From the NCBI GenBank assembly GCA_001804285.1, contig MHFR01000037.1, positions 85,952-149,951 of the forward strand: a DNA stretch of 64,000 nucleotides, in the 5' to 3' direction. Shown piece after piece: positions 17,554-64,000 of the stretch. The notes below the pieces were generated by a model that saw nothing but the letters and a program-made list of their open reading frames with translations, was not told where the DNA came from and ran no database searches. The translations under genes and the position numbers were made by a program. The stretch is from Candidatus Danuiimicrobium aquiferis (GTDB lineage: Bacteria > Omnitrophota > Omnitrophia > Omnitrophales > Danuiimicrobiaceae). Numbering within the stretch: the stretch's first letter is position 1; every line of letters begins with the position of its first letter.

Positions 17554-17701
17554 TCCTCAAAAGGTTGGAAATGAATGAGTTATTTTCGTTTCGATCAAAG
17601 TATAGCTTGCCGGATTTGGCGTTGCAAGGGACGGGAGGACGATTTCGCCCGCTTTCGACATCTTAAATTGCTTTAGAAAGTGAGGGATTAGTCTACGTAC
17701 A

Positions 17702-17777
17702 CCCGGTACCGTTTCCAAAAGTGCCGGGTTCTGGTTTAACGGCATTAGAACCTGGCACTTTTGGAAACGGTACCGGA
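17702..17777. repeat. 76-bp near-perfect palindromic element, family B
   Basis: cccggtaccgtttccaaaagtgccgggttctggtt-taacggcatt-agaacctggcacttttggaaacggtaccgg. It overlaps the 3' end of thpR and the spurious ORF 17557..17745. Further copies lie at 20724-20800 and as a half-copy at 21604-21640. Confidence 0.85.
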
Positions 17778-18353
17778 ACTCGTTTTAAAAGCAAACGAAT
17801 GAATGGGCTCGTAAATTGCCCCTTGAGGAGTCAGTGTACTTTTCATCAAAGACAGAGAGTCAACTTTCTCGCAGGGAAAATCCTGAAACAACGTCGCCGG
17901 AAAATGAACCGAACCAGATCGCACATTGGCTTTTAGACGCGCAATCGTCATGTGCGGTTTGAAGGGCCGGTCCTCAACAGGGAATTTCATCTTTTTCAAG
18001 ACTTGCTCTATCCGCTTCTTAAGTTGGGTCAACATATCAATATTTCCGCCGACTCCGGCCCAAATCAAGCGCGGTTTGCGTTCATCGGGAAACGCCCCGA
18101 TGCTTTCTAATGTCACTTCAAAAGGATTAAATTCGGAAGCCACAGGATCGAGCGCTTGAATGACCTTGTTTTTTTCTTCTTCCGTTATATTCCCAAAAAA
18201 ATAAAGGGTTAAATGCCAGTTTTCGGCCGGAAGAAATCGGAAATTTTTATATTCCAATTTGATCTTTTGGATGCGCTGATCTGCCGATTGCTTGAATTCG
18301 GCAGAAAATGGAATCGAGAGAAATGCTCTTACGGTTTCTTGATCCATGTCCAA
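17745..18353 (-). CDS. thpR: RNA 2',3'-cyclic phosphodiesterase (2H phosphoesterase, ThpR/LigT)
   Basis: 202 aa with two H-x-T-x motifs (HLTLYF and HMTIARL). The last ~13 codons, KTSSGTVSKSARF* including the stop, are encoded by the family B repeat. Confidence 0.75.
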   Translation of the reverse strand: MDMDQETVRAFLSIPFSAEFKQSADQRIQKIKLEYKNFRFLPAENWHLTLYFFGNITEEEKNKVIQALDPVASEFNPFEVTLESIGAFPDERKPRLIWAGVGGNIDMLTQLKKRIEQVLKKMKFPVEDRPFKPHMTIARLKANVRSGSVHFPATLFQDFPCEKVDSLSLMKSTLTPQGAIYEPIHSFAFKTSSGTVSKSARF

Positions 18354-19555
18354 ATTCCGAAAAGCGCTTTATTCACCGACCATTCCCGGACACGATCGCG
18401 CTCGCCGGGAATCTGTAAACGAACTACTTTTGTCCTCTTCACATCCGAAAAAGCAACATAAACCAAACCGACCGGTTTTTTAGGCGTTCCACCCGTCGGC
18501 CCCGCAATTCCTGTAATTCCGACTCCCAGCGACGATCCACATTCTTCCCTGATACCCTTTGCCATTAATTTCGCAACGATCGATGAAACGGCACCATGTT
18601 TTTCAATAATAAGTGCCGGAATATCTAAAAAATTAATTTTGATTTGATTAGCATAGGCGCAAACACCCCCGAGAAAATATCGCGATGCACCCGATGGATC
18701 CGTCACCCGTTTCGCAAGCCATCCACCGGTACAGCTTTCCGCAACCGCTAAAGTTTTCTTCTTTTTTACAAATAGTTTCATGATCGCTTCCGAAAAATCT
18801 TCGTCTCCAAACGTATAGAGATTTTCTTTGAAAATAGCCTTTAATTCCCGCTTCAACCTTTCACGCAACACCCGATTCTTTGTTTTAATCCGAATAATCA
18901 CTTCTCCCGGAACCGGATAGATTCCGAAGTCAAATACCCGGCTTTTAAAAAACTGTTTGCCCAGCTTTGTCATCACCACCGGCTCGGAAACTCCGACAAT
19001 TTTTGCCTGTAATTTAAAAAAACTTTCTCGCTTTTTAAATTTTTTGAGAATTAAATTCCTGACGGAGGTTTTAAACATACCGTGGAGTTCTCTCGGAACA
19101 CCGGGGAGAACAACAATCAGCTTCCGGTTGTATTCAATGTAAAAACCAAGCGCAATTCCATAATGATTGAGGAGCGGTGTCCCGATATCCGGGAAAAGTG
19201 CTTCGCGTTTGGTTAACGAAGGGACGCGTTGTTTGATCTTTCGATAAAGGCGGACAATATGACGGTATTGTTCGGAATTAAACATTAAATCGCATCGAAA
19301 CCGCTTGGCAATGGCTTGTCGTGTCACATCATCGGGAGTCGGGCCTAATCCGCCGGTCAAAATAATGAGATCCGAACGCCCTAAGGCTTCGTCAATCACC
19401 CGGCCGATTTCCTCAATTTGATCATGACAGCTCGCCTGGCGAATCACGCAGAAGCCCAAATCGGTCAATTGTTTTGCCAGGTATTGAGCATTCGTATTTA
19501 AAGTAAATCCGCTGAGCAGCTCCGAGCCGATCGTAATAATGTCACAATGGGGCAT
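18329..19555 (-). CDS. cinA: CinA family protein (MocF-like plus CinA C-terminal NMN deamidase domain)
   Basis: 408 aa. N-terminal MoCF-biosynthesis-like domain (DIITIGSELLSG...ILTGGLGPT) and C-terminal CinA domain (LAVAESCTGG). Confidence 0.8.
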   Translation of the reverse strand: MPHCDIITIGSELLSGFTLNTNAQYLAKQLTDLGFCVIRQASCHDQIEEIGRVIDEALGRSDLIILTGGLGPTPDDVTRQAIAKRFRCDLMFNSEQYRHIVRLYRKIKQRVPSLTKREALFPDIGTPLLNHYGIALGFYIEYNRKLIVVLPGVPRELHGMFKTSVRNLILKKFKKRESFFKLQAKIVGVSEPVVMTKLGKQFFKSRVFDFGIYPVPGEVIIRIKTKNRVLRERLKRELKAIFKENLYTFGDEDFSEAIMKLFVKKKKTLAVAESCTGGWLAKRVTDPSGASRYFLGGVCAYANQIKINFLDIPALIIEKHGAVSSIVAKLMAKGIREECGSSLGVGITGIAGPTGGTPKKPVGLVYVAFSDVKRTKVVRLQIPGERDRVREWSVNKALFGIWTWIKKP

Positions 19556-20549
19556 AATGAATCAAAAGTTGAAGGATGATATTCGCGTAGACTCCGGCAA
19601 ACACATCATCAAGGACAATTCCATATCCTTTGTGAAATTTTCTCTCTATCAAAGAAATCGGAAAAGGTTTCCATATATCAAACAAACGGAATAAAACAAA
19701 ACCGGCAAGAATCGTTTGCCACCCGAGAGGAATCCATAAAAAAGTCATCATCATTCCGCAGACTTCATCAATCACGACAATTCCCGGGTCTTCATCTTTT
19801 TCTTTACTTGAAACCACGGTGCCCGCCCAAATCGCCGCAAGCGAGACAAGCAAAAAGGCCGCAGCCAAAATGAATTGATGCATTCCGAATAAAATGACGA
19901 GCGGAAGCGCGCTTAAACTCCCCCATGTTCCGGGAGCTATTTTGGCGTATCCGATTTTAAAAACGGTTGCGATCTGATACGCGATTTTTTCTTTAGTCTC
20001 CCGAGATAAGGCGGCAAAAAACAGGATTCCCGAGTAGATGGTAATCACATTCGCGAAAAAAATTCCGGCATAATTAACCACTTGCAGCACAGAAGTTAAA
20101 TGATCAAAATACCGGGCTAAAATTAAGGACAAAAAGGATATATAAATCGATCCGACTTGAATTCCAACCTTATATTTTCCCGCCTTTTCGGCAGGGATCA
20201 CTTCGCCCTTCCGCAGAAGAACCAACCGCGTCACCGTTACAACCACTTCGCGGATCAAAATCGGAATCACCCAAAAAACGGAATAAATTCCCAAGCATGC
20301 AAAACTGAAAAAAACACCTAAAATCAGGAATTTATCCGCGATTGGGTCCGCTATTTTCCCGAAGGCTGAGACAAGATTCTTCGTCCGCGCTAAATGACCG
20401 TCATACCAATCGGTAATAATCGCCAGTGTAAAAATAAATATCGAAAACCACGGATGATTGAGCGTCCTTTCCTGAAAAAGAAGGATCGGCACCGCTATCG
20501 CCATAAAAAACCGGAGCATGGTTAATAAATTCGGCGTAATGATTTTCAT
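19542..20549 (-). CDS. pgsA: fusion of CDP-diacylglycerol--glycerol-3-phosphate 3-phosphatidyltransferase and phosphatidylglycerophosphatase A
   Basis: 335 aa. The N-terminal CDP-alcohol phosphatidyltransferase motif is DWYDGHLARTKNLVSAFGKIADPIAD. The C-terminal PgpA-like half has IAPGTWGS...DPGIVVIDEV...FRLFDIWKP...GIVLDDVFAG. Confidence 0.7.
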   Translation of the reverse strand: MKIITPNLLTMLRFFMAIAVPILLFQERTLNHPWFSIFIFTLAIITDWYDGHLARTKNLVSAFGKIADPIADKFLILGVFFSFACLGIYSVFWVIPILIREVVVTVTRLVLLRKGEVIPAEKAGKYKVGIQVGSIYISFLSLILARYFDHLTSVLQVVNYAGIFFANVITIYSGILFFAALSRETKEKIAYQIATVFKIGYAKIAPGTWGSLSALPLVILFGMHQFILAAAFLLVSLAAIWAGTVVSSKEKDEDPGIVVIDEVCGMMMTFLWIPLGWQTILAGFVLFRLFDIWKPFPISLIERKFHKGYGIVLDDVFAGVYANIILQLLIHYAPL

Positions 20550-62968: not shown

Positions 62969-63038
62969 GTTTTTCCCCCGTTCAATTTTGACTAAATTTG
63001 TAAATACTTATAAATAAAGGCTTTATGATTACACATTT

Positions 63039-63106
63039 TGTCATTCCCGCGAAAGCGGGAATCCATGAATCGGTGGATCCCCGCTTAAAGCATGCGGGGA
63101 TGACAC
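63039..63106. repeat. family A palindromic repeats (two units)
   Basis: tgtcattcccgcgaaagcgggaatccatgaatcggtggatccccgcttaaagcatgcggggatgacac. Confidence 0.85.
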
Positions 63107-63175
63107 GCGGCAATCTCAATACTGAGATTGCTTCAGCAACCATTGAACCTCGCTTCGCAATGACATCAAACACCA

Positions 63176-64000
63176 TTACGCACTCCTCATTTGCGCGAGC
63201 AGCGCGTCATAACTCGATTCAATACCATTCATCAATTCAGACAAGGTTAGCGAAAGCGCCTCACCTTTCTTTTCCTCCATCGCGGCCAGAGAATATTCGA
63301 TGATCTTGTCGCCATAAACCAGTTGAGCCGCCGCAATCGTTAATGCGCCGTTCACAACTTTAAAGTCAGTTTTCCGCAGCAATTCCGGATCAACTTGAAT
63401 ATAGGCGCGGTCTCTCGCATAAACATTTTCAAACGTGGCTCTCACAAGCTGCATGTCATCGGCATAAATCGACGCGCGATTTTCAGTCATCAATAACCGG
63501 CTCCTGAGTTGCGCCGGCAACCGGACTTTCGCATCATTCACCAAATCTTGATAGGAGGCCTGGTCAACCGCAAACACCGCCACGTTTGTCACGGCAAGAG
63601 CCTTGGCAAGAATGTCCATGCTGGATGTCCGTTCATCCCATTGCATCACAAACAGCCGCGAATTGTCATAGGTCTTGCCGATACCCAAAGCAAGTTCGCT
63701 AAATTTCTGTATCAGCACAAAATCAAATTTGTCGGCAAGCTGAGACACATCTTGCCCCGCAGAACGCCGGACAATCTGGCGAAGCGTGTTCCGGTATACC
63801 ATGGCGTCCTTACTTTCCAATGCTTCGCCTAAACGCCCTTGCTCTTCACGATTCAACAAAACGGGGACAGGTTCTGGTTTCGTTAAAGCAGAATCTGCCC
63901 CCGTTTTGGGTGCAACCGGCGCAGGTGTAATCTTTACTTCTCTCTCCGGTCTAACAACCGGTGTCACACGCCCCTCAGCAATCCTGGCCTCAGAACGCGG
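63176..64000 (-). CDS. C-terminal part of a third large ORF, 5'-truncated by the window edge, containing an in-frame family C repeat
   Basis: The track ORF 63176..63967 (263 aa) starts at an internal Met. The same frame stays open to position 64000 (...GQILL*-less reading; the rev-comp of 63968-64000 has no stop). The family C element at 63858-63960 (ggggacaggttctggtttcgttaaagcagaatctgcccccgttttgggtgcaaccggcgc) is translated as VAPKTGADSALTKPEPVPVLLNRE. Confidence 0.5.
   Translation of the reverse strand, partial: PRSEARIAEGRVTPVVRPEREVKITPAPVAPKTGADSALTKPEPVPVLLNREEQGRLGEALESKDAMVYRNTLRQIVRRSAGQDVSQLADKFDFVLIQKFSELALGIGKTYDNSRLFVMQWDERTSSMDILAKALAVTNVAVFAVDQASYQDLVNDAKVRLPAQLRSRLLMTENRASIYADDMQLVRATFENVYARDRAYIQVDPELLRKTDFKVVNGALTIAAAQLVYGDKIIEYSLAAMEEKKGEALSLTLSELMNGIESSYDALLAQMRSA

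Follow-up and report, generated by a model that had tools for sequence, protein, structure and literature searches.

In-frame palindromic repeats in an Omnitrophota genome are probably non-autonomous mobile elements of a RAYT/TIRYT system

In the 64-kb stretch of Omnitrophota DNA analysed here (the window), short palindromic repeats lie between genes and also, without breaking the reading frame, inside them, which raises the question of what these elements are and how they came to reside in coding sequence. Family B is built from an arm of about 27 nt, GGTACC[AG]TTTCCAAAAGTGCC[GA]GGTTC, that occurs either singly or as an inverted pair around a spacer of variable length; the full copies in the window (17703-17776 and 20726-20799) have 30-nt arms (complementarity 97%) and a 14-nt loop. 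Family A was present in nine copies against zero expected, and folding of the repeats as RNA, proposed in an earlier note on this DNA, gave hairpins that beat 200/200 shuffles for all eight elements (z -4.6 to -10.3), which rules out chance as their source. Families C and D have a common core (GGGGACAGG). Intergenic copies comprised an A2 + A cluster (2140..2256), two family A copies (10242..10435) in a 379-nt intergenic region also holding a family D hairpin (10495..10546), and a family A pair in inverted orientation (11857..11987). Around the giant ORFs, giant ORF1 has an intergenic A2 + A cluster on its downstream side (34886..34984) and is separated from giant ORF2 by a region with an A2 copy (51710..51807), and an A + A2 cluster lies in the gap that separates giant ORF2 from the third ORF (63036..63107). 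In a pilin-like gene the N_methyl motif does not appear until residue 64 of the longest ORF; a further family A copy (8714..8759) therefore precedes the gene's true start and was taken as extragenic. The claim that at least four of the families read in-frame are also intergenic held for A, B and D, but within the window families C and E were found in giant ORFs only. All in-frame sites listed in the earlier note were present, exactly or a few bases off, and were read through in the frame of the gene.

The clearest case is rimO, encoding the ribosomal protein S12 methylthiotransferase (20553..22085, minus strand; 510 aa from the ATG at 22085), with Pfam domains UPF0004, Radical_SAM and TRAM_2 and a match to PDB 4JC0 from T. 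maritima (E = 1e-97). Databases extend the start of this gene to a GTG at 22226. The encoded protein is identical to the RimO of "Candidatus Danuiimicrobium aquiferis". A family B inverted pair of REPIN-like form (20724..20801; 78 nt, 26 codons) encodes FRYRFQKCQVLTQVNQNPALLETVPG, RimO residues 429-454, at the junction of the radical-SAM and TRAM domains, and aligns to the T. maritima protein at a point between residues 380 and 383; as RNA it forms a hairpin of -54.9 kcal/mol (z = -10.3). In the second insert (RimO residues 131-161), a solo family B arm (21604..21639; nhmmer E = 4e-12) adjoins a family D hairpin (21643..21694; AAAAAGGGGACAGGCA ... TGCCTGTCCCCTTTTT) that matches the intergenic copy at 10495-10546, and the two jointly encode KGDRHMTQRKRLPVPFFRNQNPALLEMVP in place of an 8-residue linker in the T. 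maritima protein. The translation reproduced the two peptides quoted in the earlier note, KGDRHMTQRKRLPVPFFRNQNPALLEMVPG and RYRFQKCQVLTQVNQNPALLETVPGT. Both inserts were absent from all 15 aligned Omnitrophota RimO proteins (52-59% identity, all cluster cysteines invariant) and are therefore lineage-specific, while the frame is intact and none of the six cluster cysteines or other invariant residues is lost. By the mapping onto 4JC0 and the AlphaFold model, in which residues 134-158 and 431-453 are the sole internal segments with pLDDT below 50 and the remainder is mostly above 85, both inserts are placed in inter-domain loops; the earlier note had put one in a linker and the other in a TRAM-domain loop. 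The RimO linker is naturally length-variable, and one homologue (P0079) has a non-palindromic insert there.

Another family B inverted pair (17701..17778), 93% identical over 81 nt to the full rimO copy, straddles the 3' end of thpR, a LigT-type 2',3'-cyclic phosphodiesterase gene (17745..18353, minus strand; Pfam LigT_PEase), and places the thpR stop codon in its loop. Translation bore out the proposal that thpR takes its end from the repeat: the family B copy supplies the TAA stop together with the final ~11-13 codons, the protein ending in HSFAFKTSSGTVSKSARF (terminal residues SSGTVSKSARF), and homology to solved structures stops at residue ~188-194 of 202, before this tail. The RNA hairpin of this pair has -53.5 kcal/mol (z = -10.1).

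Giant ORF1 (35134..51705, minus strand; 5523 aa by the longest-ORF rule, with a probable Met start at 51660) holds at least six in-frame segments of repeat origin, and the two giant ORFs with such segments hold at least seven together. A family A copy (50832..50872; stem ATTCCCGC / GCGGGAAT) is read as SVIPAQAGIHGSL at about residues 263-277, and is followed by a GGGGACGG hairpin (50759..50803; GGGGACGGACCTCTT ... AAGAGGTCCGTCCCC), also in-frame, and by a long CGTC-tagged hairpin assigned to family E (50607..50692; CGTCATTGCGAG ... CTCGCAATGACG) and read as VIARSEVTKQSLNFKIASPAMGLTARND. A cluster of E-like and A-like repeat units (49973..50173), read as LRGVKRRSNQESVSFP...SFPHVFSGNPLLGDSREQLSGMT, contributes about 70 aa, and only one of its six frames, the one in use, is open. 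All of these segments were missing in the two alignable homologues of giant ORF1 (P0123 and P0124). Family C hairpins occupy 49244..49323 (GGGGACAGGTTCT ... AGAACCTGTCCCC, read as EARNLAPKMGTGSKTIKPEPVPVLGN) and 40934..41013 (residues ~3550-3576), the latter again with a single open frame of six, the one in use. The family C copy reported in a third giant ORF was recovered at 63849..63928, in-frame in a minus-strand ORF that runs from 63176 to beyond 64000 and leaves the right end of the window.

Retrieval with the family B arm pattern alone gave 109 loci which, together with the window, contained 131 arm groups, 92 of them solo and 34 inverted pairs (profile hits spaced about 0 to 57 nt apart). 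The arm is nearly invariant across many MAGs of 41-63% GC, under records labelled Omnitrophota, Elusimicrobia and Planctomycetia. Full family B pairs lie in-frame in Pfam-confirmed genes for an EPSP-synthase family protein (L030, murA/aroA-like), CtaA (L007), a GT2 glycosyltransferase (L015) and NuoL (L053), and an arm lies in-frame in an Elp3-like radical-SAM gene (L043); giant ORFs elsewhere carry solo arms (L004, L018) or an arm pair (L060). Across host genes the arm is read in all three frames (GTISKSAG, VPFPKVPGS and RYRFQKC). No empty insertion site was found at nucleotide resolution.

Within the window, intergenic DNA (3.45 kb) held about 11 repeat clusters, ordinary coding sequence (32.1 kb) 3 and the giant ORFs (28.4 kb) about 7. 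Because the intergenic density is ~35 times that of ordinary genes, the in-frame copies are most likely those that selection left in place. Nothing suggests elements designed for in-frame insertion: the lack of stops in the arms is statistically ordinary, and element length is not inherently a multiple of 3, the 59 inverted pairs being distributed 16:25:18 modulo 3, without bias.

A candidate mobilising enzyme emerged from the surveyed loci. In about 10 of the 109 (L008, L012, L021, L034, L046, L056, L074, L086, L096 and L098) a full or near-full Y1 transposase gene adjoins an arm; L091 has a C-terminal transposase fragment beside an arm, and a further case, L111, was found via protein look-up outside the 109. 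For nine of ten transposase genes inspected the 3' arm overlaps the TGA or TAG stop codon, and in L046 it begins 8 nt past the stop. Most loci with sequence on the upstream side have an inverted 5' arm or variant there (L012, L021, L034, L056/L098, L086, L046, L074 and L111), L008 and L096 being loci that end at this side. The protein (195 aa, IS200-like, HUH/Y1; Pfam Y1_Tnp, E = 1e-12 to 1e-13) has a conserved HUH motif and catalytic Tyr, with 55-62% identity among the linked transposases, and by profile it scores as a REP-associated tyrosine transposase (RAYT): against NCBIfam REP_Tyr_transpos (cutoff 80 bits) L021 reached 85.3, and two others 72.6 and 68.2. L111 holds several transposase copies in 9.5 kb, and a second transposase there has inverted GGTACCGGGTACCAAAGGGACAGGTAAC arms on both sides, similar in sequence to the family C and D cores; GGGGWSAS, the consensus given for TIRYT terminal repeats (PMC3733652), fits GGGGACAG. 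The 64-kb window itself has no transposase gene, which is why the earlier note missed this partner, and the family B copies in this genome could be fossils. Recognition of the arm by the transposase is assumed, because the arm forms no stem-loop and is without the GTAG tag of classical REPs.

With a RAYT-like gene beside the arms, an inverted arm upstream of it, and no target-site duplication at 54 of 59 inverted pairs (2 nt in four, 1 nt in one), we therefore consider it probable that the palindromes are non-autonomous mobile REPIN or TIR-dimer repeats of a RAYT/TIRYT system, their in-frame copies having survived selection. An unlikely alternative, though one with some observations in its favour, is that the host has adopted them as cis-elements: very stable mRNA hairpins that govern transcript half-life as RNase III substrates, translation pauses, DNA sites bound by the transposase, or selected protein loops. 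Stems of 30 bp and -54 kcal/mol inside housekeeping mRNA are consistent with this, as is an arm that stays nearly invariant while the linked transposases diverge. In the one orthologous in-frame pair examined (L010/L022) the arms are 100% identical and the flanking coding DNA only 77%, a contrast that pure neutrality does not predict and that suggests constraint, gene conversion or repeated insertion. However, transposase recognition with gene conversion, or recent re-insertion, explains such conservation equally well, ordinary genes are strongly depleted in the repeats, and the unrelatedness of the host genes together with the use of all three frames argues against a selected peptide.

Much less probable are classical MITEs, internally deleted DDE insertion sequences that move by cut-and-paste. 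Terminal inverted repeats of ~27 nt do flank a short, variable, non-coding core, and bacterial MITEs (Correia/NEMIS, RUP, ERIC, Nezha; PMC10969869) are likewise small non-autonomous inverted-repeat elements that are occasionally in-frame; MITEs, however, are DDE-derived and have target-site duplications, whereas nearly all pairs here have none, and the sole gene found next to or between the arms, in about 10 of the 109 loci, is the HUH/Y1 transposase, with no DDE transposase seen in the surveyed loci. An origin of the segments as ancestral protein sequence, or as repeats at the protein level, with incidental palindromy is very improbable: the three family C copies in the window do share one frame and orientation, but their mutual similarity is limited to ~85 nt between unrelated flanks, and the segments are missing in all aligned homologues, recur as the same DNA between genes and in all frames, and form perfect stems. 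Metagenomes are classically misassembled at repeats, and many linked transposases sit on contigs below 1.5 kb, yet assembly or binning artefacts, or pseudogenes, are hardly credible when independent assemblies hold the identical RimO with both inserts (four NCBI MAGs, 13 ENA contigs and a contig from JGI that matches the window at 99.99% identity), in intact frames with the invariant residues kept and the rest of the protein confidently folded in the model.

In behaviour the repeats resemble the Rickettsia palindromic elements (RPEs) reportedly described by Ogata et al. in 2000: palindromes in-frame in housekeeping genes, compatible with function and predicted to add surface loops, with the same families intergenic too. 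This parallel, drawn in the earlier note, agreed at every point tested. RPEs are specific to Rickettsia and, at about 100-150 bp, longer than the repeats here. CGTC-type RPEs are without a dedicated transposase (PMC3733652), whereas in related genomes family B sits beside a Y1 transposase gene. REPIN-RAYT systems (Bertels & Rainey 2011, PMC3116915; Nunvar 2010) and TIRYTs share short repeats that are solo or hairpin-forming inverted doublets, inverted repeats flanking an IS200-like Y1 transposase of ~190-200 aa with HUH and Tyr motifs, and lack of target duplication; TIRtron/TIRYT transposases are flanked by long terminal repeats that also form dimers elsewhere in the genome (PMC3733652). Families C and D match the GGGGWSAS terminal motif and look like equivalent repeats of a paralogous transposase. 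The family B arm differs from classical REPs in that it is not itself a palindrome and has neither a GTAG nor a CGTC tag, and thus fits the TIRYT class better. Further differences are the Omnitrophota host phylum, the arm's near-invariance across many MAGs, and the several transposase copies in L111, RAYTs being usually described as single-copy. As a kind, in-frame palindromes are not undocumented: the catalogue of Di Nocera et al. (2013) includes REPs and REP dimers that lie within genes of several species and encode 20-30 aa, with the highest numbers in R. conorii and in Opitutus terrae, of the PVC group (PMC3733652). For Omnitrophota, of which the earlier note knew no documented case, a limited literature search found no report of intragenic REPs; new here are this host phylum and the proposed transposase-linked mechanism for family B.

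For the REPIN or TIR-dimer interpretation, the paired inverted arms of a single strand would fold around their spacer into a long hairpin, which the Y1 enzyme, by analogy with IS200/IS605 and RAYT biochemistry, would excise and insert as single-stranded DNA without target duplication; the repeats of this particular genome may have been mobilised in trans in this way. Insertions would land everywhere, and those that break genes would then be purged by selection. The survivors would be mostly intergenic, with a minority that keep the frame, are stop-free in that frame and sit at structurally permissive places, such as the two RimO inter-domain linkers, the ThpR C-terminal tail and non-conserved stretches of giant proteins. 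There, the in-frame copies would be translated into loops of 10-30 aa, probably disordered, and no host benefit would be needed, the inserts presumably being neutral.

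The repeat families described in the earlier note were recovered in the window by a repeat finder, and the peptides that it had quoted were reproduced by translation. Full family B pairs (30-nt arms around a 14-nt loop, 97% complementary) were located at 17703-17776 and 20726-20799, the two copies being 93% identical over 81 nt, and a single arm of this family stood alone at 21604-21639. Of family D, one hairpin was intergenic (10495-10546) and one was inside rimO (21643-21694). Family C copies were at 40934-41013, 49244-49323 and 63849-63928, and family A was represented by nine copies of the stem ATYCCCGC-N4-GCGGGRAT, relative to zero expected. 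Likeness among the three family C copies was limited to approximately 85 nt, with unrelated flanks, and they therefore resemble an inserted element rather than a protein repeat. Every element that was folded as RNA was more stable than 200 of 200 shuffled sequences (z -4.6 to -10.3), with the full family B copies reaching -53.5 and -54.9 kcal/mol (z about -10). That the families also occur between genes was true of A, B and D, while none of the others was intergenic within the window.

The two repeat-encoded segments of RimO were specific to this sequence among 15 aligned Omnitrophota RimO proteins (alignment A1; 52-59% identity, nearest non-identical homologue 55%, best named relatives 'Candidatus Omnitrophica'), as expected for lineage-specific insertions. 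Mapped onto the Thermotoga maritima RimO structure (PDB 4JC0), the first insert takes the place of 8 residues that link the MTTase domain to the radical-SAM domain, and the second separates the radical-SAM domain from the first TRAM strand. In the AlphaFold model (mean pLDDT 82.6, pTM 0.83), residues 134-158 and 431-453 were, the N-terminus aside, the only ones with pLDDT below 50; these match the stretches that the elements encode (residues 131-161 and 429-454), and the low-confidence segments together with the inter-domain sites place both inserts in loops. The six cysteines C22, C58, C92, C195, C199 and C202 (three N-terminal cysteines and the CxxxCxxC motif) were invariant in the alignment, and all three Pfam domains, including TRAM, were present. 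Judged by cysteines, domains and model, RimO is thus predicted to be a functional enzyme and not a pseudogene. Assembly chimeras are an unlikely source of the inserts, since an identical RimO, recorded under Candidatus Danuiimicrobium aquiferis (phylum Omnitrophota), was found in NCBI MAGs (four proteins), in 13 ENA contigs and in one JGI contig, the last being 99.99% identical to window positions 20269-32157. The MAGs of this species hold OGW79662.1, OGW89248.1, OGW98099.1 and OGX03587.1. The RimO linker was also considered as a repeat hotspot, a candidate that was rejected: in a homologous protein (P0079), the DNA that encodes the extra linker residues is not palindromic, and the linker is simply length-variable. 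Public gene calls take rimO to a GTG at 22226 (557 aa, an additional 47 codons; region 22086-22240), which is probably an over-extension; in the NCBI version the start is later still, at the methionine of MKVGMISLGC. The additional codons span a G/C-run region downstream of ftsK that holds a CCTTCCCC..GGGGAAGG hairpin at 22168-22190.

For ThpR, homology to solved LigT/ThpR structures stops at residue 188-194 or thereabouts (of 202), and the tail and stop codon are therefore derived from the family B copy, as had been proposed. The in-frame repeats of giant ORF1 (35134..51705, minus strand) were borne out as well, and were more numerous than previously listed: a family A copy (50832-50872), a GGGGACGG hairpin (50759-50803), an 86-nt CGTC-tagged hairpin (50607-50692), a 200-nt repeat cluster (49973-50173) and two family C copies. 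The conserved N-terminal domain of this ORF could be aligned with two homologues (34-38% identity), in both of which the segments encoded by family A, family E and the cluster appeared as gaps. One homologue of this domain, P0124, carries a private insert of its own (RHRRTRRGGRAQDSRGRGIQGEGPGI; columns ~231-256 of alignment A3) at a different site, which may be another repeat-derived insertion. Translation of the in-frame inserts would yield junction peptides, for example from ...NQNPALLETVPGTGAWYTGR.

A scan with the 21-nt core of the family B arm, using one genome per species, produced 30 loci, mostly in Omnitrophota MAGs of 45-63% GC, with some records labelled Elusimicrobia or Planctomycetia; scanning of metagenomes added at least 79 further loci (109 in all; loci of other genomes and metagenomes are denoted L001-L111). 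The conserved unit of the family was the arm of approximately 27 nt and not the entire palindrome: 131 arm groups included 92 solo arms and 34 inverted pairs, with spacers of widely differing length and sequence. Apart from GGTACC, the arm contains no stem of its own, and it is without a GTAG or CGTC tag. No family B arm was found in the viral contigs searched, and there is accordingly no hint of a phage vehicle. When the 150-nt flanks of 52 pairs were joined and searched against the retrieved loci, no convincing empty site was found; a match between L081 and the window was set aside as a common intergenic motif and not an empty site at an orthologous position. In L001, a solo arm (503-585) lies approximately 25 nt downstream of the apparent 3' end of a tRNA gene (GGTTCGAATCCCGTTAGCCACCCCA).

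In about 10 of the 109 loci the arm adjoined an ORF of 195-199 aa, with a fragment of one in L091 besides, and all three proteins tested matched Pfam Y1_Tnp. Scores against NCBIfam NF047646 (REP-associated tyrosine transposase; cutoff 80 bits) were 85.3, 72.6 and 68.2 for L021, L008 and L012, respectively, and the HUH motif and catalytic tyrosine were conserved (NHxHLL and RYIERNP). The 3' arm overlapped the stop codon in nine of the ten genes printed (...GTC TGA ACC CGG CAC TTT TGG AAA TGG TAC C), and in the remaining locus, L046, it began 8 nt past the stop. An inverted 5' arm or a variant of it was present upstream of the start in L012, L021, L034, L056/L098, L086, L046, L074 and L111; for L008 and L096 the upstream sequence is missing. 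The transposase protein family comprised at least 3786 clusters at E <= 1e-30. No transposase gene was detected by tblastn within the 64-kb window, and the transposase closest to the arm variant of the window was P0142, encoded in L111 from an unrelated metagenome assembly. A second, divergent transposase of L111 has inverted GGTACCGGGTACCAAAGGGACAGGTAAC arms on either side; the core of these arms is similar to families C and D in the window and fits the motif GGGGWSAS. We have good confidence that the mechanism, a Y1/HUH transposase acting with hairpin repeats, has been identified for family B; for families C and D the same mechanism is plausible.

Several further arrangements were observed around these transposases. 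L111 (JAHZTO010014854.1) carries three Y1 transposase genes within 9.5 kb (2976-3563, 4672-5259 and 9458-end), two of them from a 2.9-kb segmental duplication (94.6% identity) and the third, a divergent paralogue, having GGGACAGG-type arms to itself, and an HNH endonuclease gene adjoins them; three transposases in one locus would be unusual if RAYTs are single-copy. A second transposase paralogue was also present in L056 (281-865) and L098 (3465-3932), 46-47% identical to the B-linked one and flanked by different arms (GGAGGCGTTACTG..GTGCC). From this, a single genome seems to hold several transposase/arm pairs that co-evolve.

Among known classes of repeat, family B fits the TIRtron/TIRYT best. 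In these systems, RAYT-like transposases are associated with long terminal inverted repeats that are unrelated to GTAG REPs and also form a dispersed family, often as dimers (PMC3733652), and family B likewise shows flanking inverted repeats and a dispersed family that includes dimers. The motif GGGGWSAS, which PMC3733652 gives for some of the terminal repeats belonging to TIR-associated tyrosine transposases, is matched by families C and D (GGGGACAG) and not by family B (AAGTGCCG). In architecture, family B also fits the REPIN concept of Bertels and Rainey: as in REPIN-RAYT systems, inverted copies separated by a short spacer form a hairpin and solo copies occur besides (34 and 92, respectively), and a Y1 transposase is flanked by inverted repeats (approximately 10 loci in other genomes or metagenomes). 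The strict definition of a classical REP, an imperfect palindrome of 20-40 nt with a terminal GTAG/CGTC tag, excludes the family B arm, while family E, which starts with CGTC, and family A, a stem-loop unit, may qualify. Classical REPs are in addition extragenic, unlike the copies studied inside rimO, thpR and the giant ORFs, although most other copies in the window are extragenic. A DDE-derived MITE would be expected to leave a target-site duplication, and at 59 inverted pairs 54 had none, four had 2 nt and one had 1 nt, as by chance, which fits HUH single-strand transposition and argues against such MITEs.

In-frame palindromic repeats are a hallmark of Rickettsia RPEs; the comparison made here is with their behaviour alone (in-frame insertion in loops) and not with the RPE-1 to RPE-8 sequences. 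The behaviour was not known to the earlier note from this type of genome; in kind, it is documented. Di Nocera et al. (2013) listed intragenic GTAG and CGTC REPs from several species, the highest numbers being those of Opitutus terrae (PVC group) and R. conorii, and described REP dimers encoding 20-30 aa, REP termini supplying stop codons, and RAYT-like transposases whose flanking terminal repeats are not REPs and are also dispersed in the genome as dimers (TIRtrons/TIRYT; PMC3733652). For Omnitrophota, the literature searched, which included papers on Omnitrophota genomes and giant genes, yielded no report of such repeats.

The in-frame position of the copies was analyzed by compartment, after correction of gene models with over-long starts. 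Intergenic DNA (3.45 kb) contained approximately 11 repeat clusters, ordinary coding sequence (32.1 kb) three, and the giant ORFs (28.4 kb) approximately seven, so that repeat density was approximately 35 times higher between genes than in ordinary genes, with giant genes intermediate. Such a distribution is what random insertion, with purifying selection acting afterwards, would be expected to leave. An alternative, in which the elements are designed for coding compatibility, was examined through the avoidance of stops and through element length as a multiple of three. The B and C arms do lack stops in any of six frames, and all three frames are used across hosts, but 9-12% of composition-matched shuffles are equally stop-free (not significant), and element lengths over 59 pairs were distributed 16:25:18 modulo 3, without bias, so that a multiple-of-three design was rejected; no evidence of such design was seen. 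In-frame family B pairs were found deep inside Pfam-confirmed genes for an EPSP-synthase-family enzyme (L030), CtaA/COX15 (L007), a GT2 glycosyltransferase (L015) and NuoL (L053), and a single in-frame arm in a Pfam-confirmed Elp3-like radical-SAM gene (L043). Giant ORFs of other MAGs carried solo arms (L004, L018) or a pair (L060). Altogether, the reading of these sequences as in-frame palindromic insertions is supported, and the observation itself is confirmed.

One result is not predicted by simple neutrality. In L010 and L022 a pair occupies the same codon of orthologous genes, with flanks that are 77% identical and both arms 100% identical, which could reflect constraint imposed by the transposase, gene conversion among copies, or re-insertion. 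Similarly, the linked transposases are 55-62% identical, yet their arms are nearly invariant. These two contrasts are what active maintenance of the intragenic copies would rest on. We regard it as rather improbable that they are so maintained and that, as a related reading, the RAYT-repeat system is a horizontally mobile element common to ultra-small groundwater bacteria from several phyla, the labels on the records being Omnitrophota, Elusimicrobia and Planctomycetia; a lineage-bound passenger with vertical inheritance is the usual picture of REPIN-RAYT systems. If true, active maintenance would mean that hairpins within coding DNA serve some function for the host or for the element.

Two features of the arms and their surroundings were recorded separately. 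The sequence GAAT(T) directly adjoins one outer end of family B pairs, or ATTC the opposite end, in 12 of 118 cases relative to approximately 0.5 expected (L010, L022, L032, L040, L043, L045, L051, L071, L076, L090 and L106), and may reflect either the sites preferred by the transposase or an extension of the arm within a subfamily. In the window and in L001-L110, the one variable position, GTGCC[G/A]GGTT, switches one arm between CCGGG and CCAGG and its partner between CCCGG and CCTGG, so that many copies have a G.T or A.C mismatch in the stem; precisely these two transitions distinguish the orthologous copies of L010 and L022. As speculation, the pattern would fit deamination of a methylated CCGG cytosine.

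All long ORFs of the window are on the minus strand, its GC content is 38-50% and its GC skew is negative throughout (1-64000). The neighbouring genes are ordinary (type IV pilus/T2SS, a sigma-54 two-component system, cinA, pgsA-pgpA, ftsK, pnp, truB and ribF); no tRNA was found across the 64 kb, and an Rfam scan of the whole window returned no family at gathering score. Tandem paralogous genes at 13410-15104 and 15108-16847 share short direct matches at a constant spacing of 1713 nt, the first being a T2SSE/PilB-type ATPase by Pfam, and an ORF with an MshEN domain lies separately at 17032-17553. Upstream of the pilus ATPase gene, an intergenic block of approximately 90 nt (13309-13400; …CAATGACCAAGGAAATCCCAAA…TTTGCGTCATTGGGGTTTGGTCATT) is ~82% identical to positions ~2740-2850 of L081, a low-GC locus that also carries families A, B and D; this block may be a promoter or regulatory region. 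A 105-aa minus-strand ORF (10235-10552) fills a 379-nt intergenic region and is composed almost wholly of repeats, with family A contributing two copies and family D one hairpin; this ORF is very likely spurious and repeat-generated, of the kind that seeds hypothetical-protein families.

These results give a named mechanism to a conspicuous feature of Omnitrophota genomes that is unmentioned in the Omnitrophota genome papers checked. Repeat peptides such as VIPAQAGIH, NPALLEMVP and VPFPKVPGS will be expected to seed spurious protein families, spurious ORFs and over-extended starts in MAG annotation. Omnitrophota giant genes owe some of their length to repeat DNA of recent insertion, and even conserved enzymes such as RimO tolerate inserts of 25-30 residues at inter-domain linkers. 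If the conservation of arms within genes reflects selection, the system would be a tractable test case for REPIN-like hairpins acting within mRNAs.
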